Below the pieces are notes generated by a model. It saw only the letters and a list, made by a program, of their open reading frames with translations. It searched no databases and was not told the DNA's origin. A stretch of 64,000 nt of DNA from NCBI RefSeq assembly GCF_056712565.1, contig NZ_CM160072.1; one strand, given 5' to 3'. Of this stretch, positions 34,309 to 36,305 are shown one piece after another (the first letter of the stretch is position 1; every line of letters starts with the position of its first letter). The translations under genes were made by a program, and so were the position numbers.

Positions 34309-34440
34309 AGTTTGCTCCTGCCATAACGTGAAGAAGCAATGACCTGGTGGTCCGTGACTTCCCTACGCTGGCATTATCCAGATCAGGTGATACGGGTATT
34401 TCTCAGCCTTCACAAAGAAGGGCACCCCGAGTCGTTTGGT
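34309..34440 (-). promoter_or_regulatory. TPP (THI-box) riboswitch in thiM 5' leader
   Basis: Minus strand reads CUCGGGGUGCCCUUCUUUGUGAAGGCUGAGAAAUACCCGUAUCACCUGAUCUGGAUAAUGCCAGCGUAGGGAAGUCACGGACC, then SD and AUG. Confidence 0.8.
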
Positions 34441-34530: not shown

Positions 34531-34803
34531 TTATTTGATATAAGAATCCAGCACCTTCAGAACGACATCCAGATCTTCTTCTCGTTTTAGCTCATCCCCC
34601 TGGTGAACGATGTGTTCCGTCAGATGACCTTTAATCACTTCCCGCATCAGACCGTTTACCGCGCCACGGATAGCAGCAATCTGTTGTAAAACTGCAGCGC
34701 ATTCATGCGGTTCGTCGAGCATTTTCTTGAGCGCCACGACCTGGCCCTGAATCTTACTGGCACGCGCTTTCAGTTTCTGTTTATCACGGATTGTATGAGA
34801 CAT
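34531..34803 (-). CDS. rcnR: Ni/Co-responsive repressor RcnR
   Basis: 90 aa. Confidence 0.9.
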
Positions 34804-34851: not shown

Positions 34852-34886
34852 TACTGGGGGGTAGTATCAGGTACTGGGGGGGAGTA
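34852..34886. promoter_or_regulatory. Two RcnR operator sites (TACT-G6/7-N-AGTA) in the rcnR-rcnA intergenic region
   Basis: tactggggggtagta (34852-34866) and tactgggggggagta (34872-34886). Confidence 0.7.
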
Positions 34887-34923: not shown

Positions 34924-35748
34924 ATGACCGAATTTACAACACTTCTTCAGCAAGGAAACGCCTGGTTCTTCATCCCCAGCGCCATCTTACTTGGTGCGCT
35001 TCATGGCCTGGAACCGGGGCACTCAAAAACGATGATGGCGGCGTTTATCATCGCCATCAAAGGCACCATTAAACAGGCGGTGATGCTCGGACTGGCAGCA
35101 ACTATTTCGCATACCGCAGTGGTCTGGTTAATTGCCTTTGGCGGGATGGTGATCAGCAAACGCTTTACTGCTCAATCAGCAGAACCGTGGCTCCAGTTGA
35201 TTTCCGCAGTGATCATTATTAGCACCGCGTTCTGGATGTTCTGGCGTACCTGGCGCGGCGAACGCAACTGGCTGGAGAATATGCACGAGCATGATCATGA
35301 GCATCATCACCACGATCACGAAGATCACCACGACCATGGACATCATCACCATCACGAACATGGCGAGTATCAGGATGCCCATGCACGAGCCCATGCCAAT
35401 GACATTAAACGACGCTTTGATGGTAGAGAGGTCACCAACTGGCAAATTTTGCTATTTGGCTTAACCGGTGGCCTTATCCCCTGCCCGGCAGCAATTACCG
35501 TGCTGTTGATTTGCATTCAGTTGAAAGCCCTGACACTGGGCGCAACACTGGTCGTCAGTTTCAGCCTCGGCCTGGCGTTAACGCTTGTCACCGTAGGCGT
35601 TGGCGCAGCAATCAGCGTTCAGCAGGTCGCAAAACGCTGGAGCGGATTTAACACTCTCGCTAAACGCGCTCCCTATTTTTCCAGTCTGTTGATTGGCTTA
35701 GTTGGTGTGTATATGGGCGTACATGGCTTCATGGGCATAATGCGATAA
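34924..35748 (+). CDS. rcnA: Ni/Co efflux protein RcnA
   Basis: 274 aa membrane protein with His-rich loop. Confidence 0.9.
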   Translation: MTEFTTLLQQGNAWFFIPSAILLGALHGLEPGHSKTMMAAFIIAIKGTIKQAVMLGLAATISHTAVVWLIAFGGMVISKRFTAQSAEPWLQLISAVIIISTAFWMFWRTWRGERNWLENMHEHDHEHHHHDHEDHHDHGHHHHHEHGEYQDAHARAHANDIKRRFDGREVTNWQILLFGLTGGLIPCPAAITVLLICIQLKALTLGATLVVSFSLGLALTLVTVGVGAAISVQQVAKRWSGFNTLAKRAPYFSSLLIGLVGVYMGVHGFMGIMR

Positions 35749-35966: not shown

Positions 35967-36305
35967 ATGACCATTAAAAATAAGATGTTGCTGGGTGCGC
36001 TTTTGCTGGTTACCAGTGCCGCCTGGGCCGCACCAGCCACCGCGGGTTCGACCAATACCTCGGGAATTTCTAAGTATGAGTTAAGCAGTTTCATTGCTGA
36101 CTTTAAGCATTTCAAACCAGGTGACACCGTCCCAGAGATGTACCGCACCGATGAGTACAACATTAAGCAGTGGCAGTTACGTAACCTGCCCGCGCCTGAT
36201 GCCGGGACGCACTGGACCTATATGGGTGGCGCGTACGTGTTGATCAGCGACACCGACGGTAAAATCATTAAAGCCTACGACGGTGAGATTTTTTATCATC
36301 GCTAA
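35967..36305 (+). CDS. rcnB: Periplasmic protein RcnB (YohN)
   Basis: 112 aa from ATG 35967 (MTIKNKMLLGALLLVTSAAWA...), signal peptide. Confidence 0.8.
   Translation: MTIKNKMLLGALLLVTSAAWAAPATAGSTNTSGISKYELSSFIADFKHFKPGDTVPEMYRTDEYNIKQWQLRNLPAPDAGTHWTYMGGAYVLISDTDGKIIKAYDGEIFYHR

Follow-up and report, generated by a model that had tools for sequence, protein, structure and literature searches.

The histidine-rich central loop of the nickel/cobalt efflux protein RcnA and its length variation across Escherichia coli

The efflux gene rcnA (yohM), the His-rich loop of its product and the length polymorphism of this loop are already documented, and typing schemes for E. coli O157, Salmonella and Klebsiella make use of the site. 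In Salmonella, the MLVA locus STTR5 is formed by a CACGAC repeat in yohM/rcnA with a median of 10 units and a maximum of 26, and single-unit changes have been recorded during passaging (PMC5183578, PMC1781188). Additionally, in vivo passage of Salmonella yielded a 54-nt deletion at nt 367 of rcnA that removes (HD)9 (PMC6760104). An MLVA scheme for Klebsiella pneumoniae includes a 6-bp repeat located in rcnA (PMC3948817), and the primer sequences for the VNTR-19 locus of E. coli O157 are printed in PMC8461963. As to function, the choice between an exporter role of RcnA and a chelator role via its loop has been described as unsettled (PMC11247825), and no direct experiments on metal binding or function of the E. 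coli RcnA loop were found in the literature searched.

An allele of this gene is carried by the stretch of DNA analyzed here (64,000 nt from contig NZ_CM160072.1 of assembly GCF_056712565.1; hereafter the window). A His-rich segment within it is very probably the central hydrophilic loop of RcnA, an RcnR-regulated Ni(II)/Co(II) efflux protein, with a composition that would serve metal capture and a length that would change by slippage. The feature is real but ordinary; apart from confirming the documented gene, loop and polymorphism, the analysis is of modest value, which lies in a picture of the loop across the species.

Gene context and composition of the segment

The gene and its immediate surroundings comprise the following features:

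34531 to 34803, minus strand: rcnR, the divergent Ni/Co-responsive repressor of rcnA, upstream of it (Pfam PF02583, 3.5e-21; NCBIfam RcnR equivalog, 4e-59)
34852 to 34866 and 34872 to 34886, plus strand: two RcnR operators, TACT-G6-N-AGTA, in the rcnR-rcnA intergenic region (exact matches, 0 expected by chance)
34924 to 35748, plus strand: rcnA (yohM) coding sequence from the open reading frame list, 274 aa, a NicO-family Ni/Co efflux protein
35967 to 36305, plus strand: rcnB, periplasmic accessory protein of the efflux system, downstream (Pfam PF11776 RcnB, 7.3e-19)

The rcnA product matches the Pfam NicO profile (PF03824) over residues 13-273 (3e-69, 233.9 bits against a cut-off of 27.7) and the NCBIfam nickel/cobalt efflux transporter profile (NF007454) over residues 1-274 (5.8e-169, 560.6 bits against a cut-off of 195). 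In a whole-gene search, rcnA is annotated at this gene in 5,365 of 5,426 complete E. coli genomes, several of which are 100% identical, and related genomes have rcnB annotated at the corresponding place. The two intergenic elements correspond to the motif published for the RcnR operator (PMC7055735). On these profile matches, the rcnR/rcnB synteny and the two operators, the gene is identified at the sequence level as rcnA; the original prediction had named it as such from the letters alone, and both the profile matches and the annotation of complete genomes bear this out.

On the far side of rcnR, a TPP riboswitch (Rfam RF00059, 71.2 bits) is located at 34343-34439 on the minus strand, upstream of thiM-thiD and adjoining rcnR. 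K-12-type strains (loci L004-L009) share this riboswitch with the window; at the same position upstream of rcnR, O157-type strains (positions 1-99 of loci L001-L003) carry a coding sequence annotated as an outer membrane protein, WP_000735648.1, which is a lineage-specific insertion adjoining the locus.

Within rcnA, two adjacent elements delimit the segment:

35284 to 35367, plus strand: variable His-rich tract, the low-complexity core of the RcnA central loop, in frame as rcnA codons 121-148 and encoding the 28-residue peptide HEHDHEHHHHDHEDHHDHGHHHHHEHGE
35374 to 35397, plus strand: conserved DAHARAHA motif, directly 3' of the variable tract (family consensus DAHxxAHAxxIxxRF)

The codons of the tract read CAC GAG CAT GAT CAT GAG CAT CAT CAC CAC GAT CAC GAA GAT CAC CAC GAC CAT GGA CAT CAT CAC CAT CAC GAA CAT GGC GAG. 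His accounts for 17 of the 27 residues in codons 121-147 (63%; 9 CAT and 8 CAC), accompanied by 4 Asp, 4 Glu and 2 Gly. The prediction of a His-rich low-complexity segment inside rcnA therefore holds exactly in frame and peptide (ORF 34924-35748, codons 121-148), and its description as a run of CAT/CAC codons is right in that 17 of 27 codons specify His, but the run is not pure, Asp, Glu and Gly codons being interspersed. The interval first assigned to it, 35281-35398, needs to be narrowed: position 35281 is base 1 of codon 120 (ATG), and the end lies 31 nt past the peptide and one base out of frame, within YQDAHARAHA, whereas the peptide itself occupies 35284-35367. The DAHARAHA motif is nearly invariant among the aligned E. 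coli alleles, the exception being locus L004, in which A158 is replaced by S.

The segment was also proposed to be coding and not an extragenic repeat, which is confirmed by its continuity in the rcnA frame with the full-length NicO match. The converse reading, that the His-rich stretch reflects chance composition or belongs to a gene on the opposite strand, has practically negligible probability. It can draw on an 89-aa, Met/Val-rich antisense ORF at 35176-35445 (minus strand), which overlaps the loop, and on other short overlapping ORFs in the ORF list; however, the Met/Val richness arises trivially from ATG and GTG complementing the His codons CAT and CAC, and the antisense ORF was rejected as a gene. 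Moreover, the sense frame is continuous through the full-length NicO match, indels among alleles keep that frame, and only 6 His are found among the 247 RcnA residues outside the tract, a background at which the binomial probability of at least 17 His in 27 is 2.4e-21.

At the nucleotide level, Tandem Repeats Finder reports only degenerate repeats in the tract of the window, with periods of 18 (3.2 copies, 74% match), 9 (3.1 copies, 78%) and 12 (1.9 copies, 90%). The longest perfect repeats extend over 8 nt for a unit of 3 and over 12 nt (two copies) for a unit of 6; an array of several perfect 6-bp units is absent from the window allele, and neither a (GACCAC) nor a (CACGAG) array occurs in its in-silico amplicon described below. 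Because all repeats are degenerate and no more than two copies are perfect, the window allele is, as judged from its letters, probably not very slippage-prone.

The loop across the RcnA family

In a search covering 1.84 billion representatives, 5,189 relatives were identified. The central loop is present in all 59 of the full-length homologues, in which it measures 18-254 residues, is mostly 24-54% His and has HD, HE or HG repeats. Its composition is conserved across the family and its sequence and length are not, because the loops of the homologues vary in length yet stay mostly His-rich; the constraint on the loop is accordingly compositional and not one of sequence. In an alignment of 40 sequences, the invariant residues are H27, E30, P31, G32, H33, K35, H63, G183, P186 and C187. 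They fall in the motifs H27-x2-E30-P-G-H33-x-K35, H63 and G183-x2-P186-C187 (HxxEPGHxK and GGLxPCP), which flank the hydrophilic loop and are all located in the membrane halves.

In RcnA, the loop is the link between the N-terminal membrane half and the C-terminal one. An AlphaFold2 model built from the 40-sequence alignment (mean pLDDT 81, pTM 0.71) has a helical membrane core, in which residues 122-148 form coil, with the mean pLDDT of 10-residue blocks falling to 49-54, and residues 149-165, with the DAHARAHA motif, form a helix; the loop is thus modelled as unstructured. From a hydropathy scan, the count of N-terminal helices is ambiguous. Eight Lys/Arg residues flank the loop in the region 106-172, and by the positive-inside rule, together with a published DeepTMHMM prediction that places the loop in the cytoplasm (PMC11247825), a cytoplasmic location is predicted.

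The original prediction called the segment a metal-binding loop, and this remains the accepted, if putative, reading, suggested by the composition of the loop and by statements in the literature. In mechanistic terms, the loop may capture cytoplasmic Ni2+ and Co2+ as a multivalent imidazole/carboxylate site of low specificity, and the captured metal may then be handed to the conserved membrane site, or be buffered.

In a subset of RcnA homologues (P0121, P0123, P0125, P0129, P0130, P0133, P0136, P0138, P0145, P0244 and P0268), about 100 additional residues are inserted into the central loop; P0121, with 371 aa, is 74% identical to the RcnA of the window. The insert is not His-rich and contains the conserved motifs IDTGHG..LE..FE..PP.FR and PEPH.F...H.GH.H.Y, and it looks like a folded domain within the His-rich loop.

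Neither a PDB sequence search nor Foldseek found a solved homologue of RcnA. With Foldseek, the AlphaFold2 model had no match in the PDB at E <= 0.001, and the best TM-score, 0.44/0.52 with CcdA (5vkv), was non-significant; this likeness to the CcdA fold may agree, if only loosely, with a weak Pfam match to DsbD_2. PDB sequence matches obtained with the translated gene (34924-35745) reached E-values down to 7.6e-05, and they were rejected as spurious: they involve only residues ~135-148 of the loop, which align with the His-tags of recombinant proteins and with a His-rich cobaltochelatase tail. Such spurious His-tag matches through the RcnA loop call for caution in automated annotation.

Length alleles in Escherichia coli

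The segment is bracketed by matches to published typing primers:

35206 to 35241, plus strand: match to the E. coli O157 MLVA VNTR-19 forward primer (1 mismatch, 0 expected by chance)
35459 to 35487, minus strand: match to the E. coli O157 MLVA VNTR-19 reverse primer (3 mismatches, 0 expected by chance)

The in-silico VNTR-19 amplicon of the window therefore spans 35206-35487 and measures 282 bp. On O157-type loci, the same primers have 0 and 1 mismatches and delimit products of 309-327 bp with 6-9 GACCAC units, a size inside the published range of 283-357 bp.

In an evenly spaced sample from the whole-gene search, rcnA spans 804, 822, 825, 840, 849, 852, 858 or 870 nt. Fourteen rcnA loci from other genomes were aligned with the window allele, giving 15 alleles read at the DNA level, and in this set all length differences lie between NWLENM and YQDAHARAH, while the membrane halves are nearly invariant. 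Four classes of allele can be distinguished. The first is the imperfect 27-residue form shared by the window and K-12; the second, O157-type, contains perfect (GACCAC)n, encoding (HD)n, in 4, 6, 7 or 9 copies together with a DNE insertion; the third contains (CACGAG)n, encoding (HE)n, with 4 or 5 units; and the fourth comprises loops enlarged by duplications of 9-24 nt. Units and indels among the alleles measure 3, 6, 9, 15, 18 or 24 nt.

The frequency of these forms was estimated with the window's 282-bp in-silico amplicon as the query against 5,363 complete E. coli genomes. Identity to the query is at least 99% in 1,806 genomes, 95-99% in 2,889, 90-95% in 260 and 80-90% in 408. In evenly spaced samples, full-coverage rows at 96.8% identity or more all measure 282 bp, and rows at 93.3% or less all have another length, 258-315 bp, with the exception of one IS-adjacent partial match. 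Since the identity bands match amplicon length in the sampled rows, ~87% of the 5,363 genomes are estimated to keep the 27-residue form and ~12% (about 668) to carry indels of at least 9 nt, these shares being derived from bands and evenly spaced samples and not from a full enumeration. The allele class to which the window belongs is constant in length at 282 bp. When an O157 amplicon was used as the query, 64, 213 and 84 genomes were found at identities of at least 99%, 95-99% and 90-95%, respectively, so that about 361 genomes carry O157-type alleles, in several copy numbers.

Among 120 protein-cluster representatives of E. coli/Shigella, 42 distinct loops of 21-54 residues occur, all with 50-65% His, and the His count correlates with loop length in the same set (r = 0.94). 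A comparison of amino-acid diversity inside and outside the loop was discarded for these representatives, the N-terminal flank being as variable as the loop, apparently due to singleton metagenome ORFs with aberrant N-termini in the set; complete-genome alleles were used for this comparison in their place.

The check across E. coli rcnA alleles thus revealed a clear polymorphism confined to the loop, in line with the suggestion that its length varies between strains. The accompanying view of the repeats as slippage-prone is apt for the (GACCAC)n and (CACGAG)n allele classes but not for the window allele, whose repeats are imperfect and whose length is common to ~87% of genomes. The His/Asp/Glu codon repeats of the loop very probably arose by in-frame duplication. 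In the window allele, they would have decayed, which would be the reason for its stable length; in Salmonella and other lineages of E. coli, the same position holds perfect 6-bp repeats, whose unit number would rise and fall through replication slippage. The locus would then represent a coding VNTR whose unit changes never alter the frame.

Phase variation, in which rcnA would be switched on and off by frameshifts in a contingency repeat, is very improbable here. Its one point of departure is the rcnA of E. coli FDN-24 (L010, 419-1269), an O157-type allele with (GACCAC)4 that is annotated as frameshifted owing to a 1-nt loss (CATCA-CACCAC) inside the loop; FDN-9 (H124), an isolate from the same source, has the same 308-bp in-silico amplicon. 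This lone frameshift is, however, a base loss in CATCATCAC and not a change in unit number, and it could be either a real pseudogene or an assembly error. Every repeat unit is a multiple of 3 nt, and 14 of the 15 alleles compared as DNA, as well as 120 of the 120 cluster representatives, remain in frame. A phase-variable contingency locus, for which the unit should not be divisible by three, was consequently rejected.

In a separate case, E. coli 81EVA (H120, NZ_CP138397.1), the amplicon matches only from position 114 on and an IS3-family transposase is annotated alongside, which suggests an IS insertion interrupting rcnA in or near the loop.

A further alternative, opposed to neutral drift of the loop within a compositional constraint, is that it serves as an evolvable tuning knob, with alleles of different length and composition being selected by lineage and setting Ni/Co efflux or buffering. 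The existence of distinct allele classes, the scaling of His content with loop length and the concentration of (HD)n alleles in O157-type strains are compatible with this proposal, as is the greatly expanded loop of cable bacteria (PMC11247825). In Salmonella, STTR5 alleles cluster at mid-range copy numbers, from which a stabilizing force has been inferred (PMC5183578); nevertheless, the same study argues that mid-range clustering can result from mutational bias alone. In addition, ~87% of E. coli genomes share one length, and a constant His fraction (50-65%) is what would be expected under neutral gain and loss of units. Selection of this kind is accordingly considered rather unlikely. The more specific proposition that (HD)n expansions and duplications giving loops of 45-54 residues quantitatively change Ni/Co buffering or efflux and are kept by niche-specific selection is doubtful as well, and should be regarded as a speculation with a slim chance of being correct. 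If it were true, the coding VNTR would be a heritable tuning knob for metal homeostasis and not a neutral typing marker.

The picture across the species is one in which most E. coli have a decayed, length-stable loop of 27 residues and a minority of lineages have active 6-bp arrays, with a His content of 50-65% whatever the length of the loop.

Comparison with known systems

CDF transporters (ZnT, CzcD) and ZIP transporters possess disordered His-rich loops between transmembrane helices, which are thought to capture or sense divalent metal. The likeness of the RcnA loop to them would be a functional analogy only, folds and families being unrelated. No Pfam match to a Cation_efflux or Zip domain was found in RcnA at E <= 0.01, the matches being NicO and, weakly, DsbD_2, and the Foldseek matches of the RcnA model to ZnT7 and BbZIP in the PDB were non-significant (E > 6).

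With RcnA of E. coli K-12 (YohM, b2106), the window shares the gene, its length of 274 aa, the rcnR-rcnA-rcnB context, the operators and 27 loop residues in register, and its amplicon is 98.2% identical to those of K-12-derived strains. The two differ by E122G, H125Y and D134H (relative to K-12) in the loop, as against one change outside it.

In the case of VNTR-19 of E. coli O157:H7 (PulseNet), the published primers bracket exactly this rcnA segment; the difference is that the window allele has 0 tandem GACCAC copies. For Salmonella STTR5, the correspondence is taken from the published position of its (HD)n tract, which starts at nt 367, equivalent to codon 123, or 35290 in the window. The gene is orthologous, the place is the same and gain or loss is by 6 bp in frame; however, the Salmonella locus consists of long perfect arrays with measurable slippage, whereas the window allele is decayed and imperfect.
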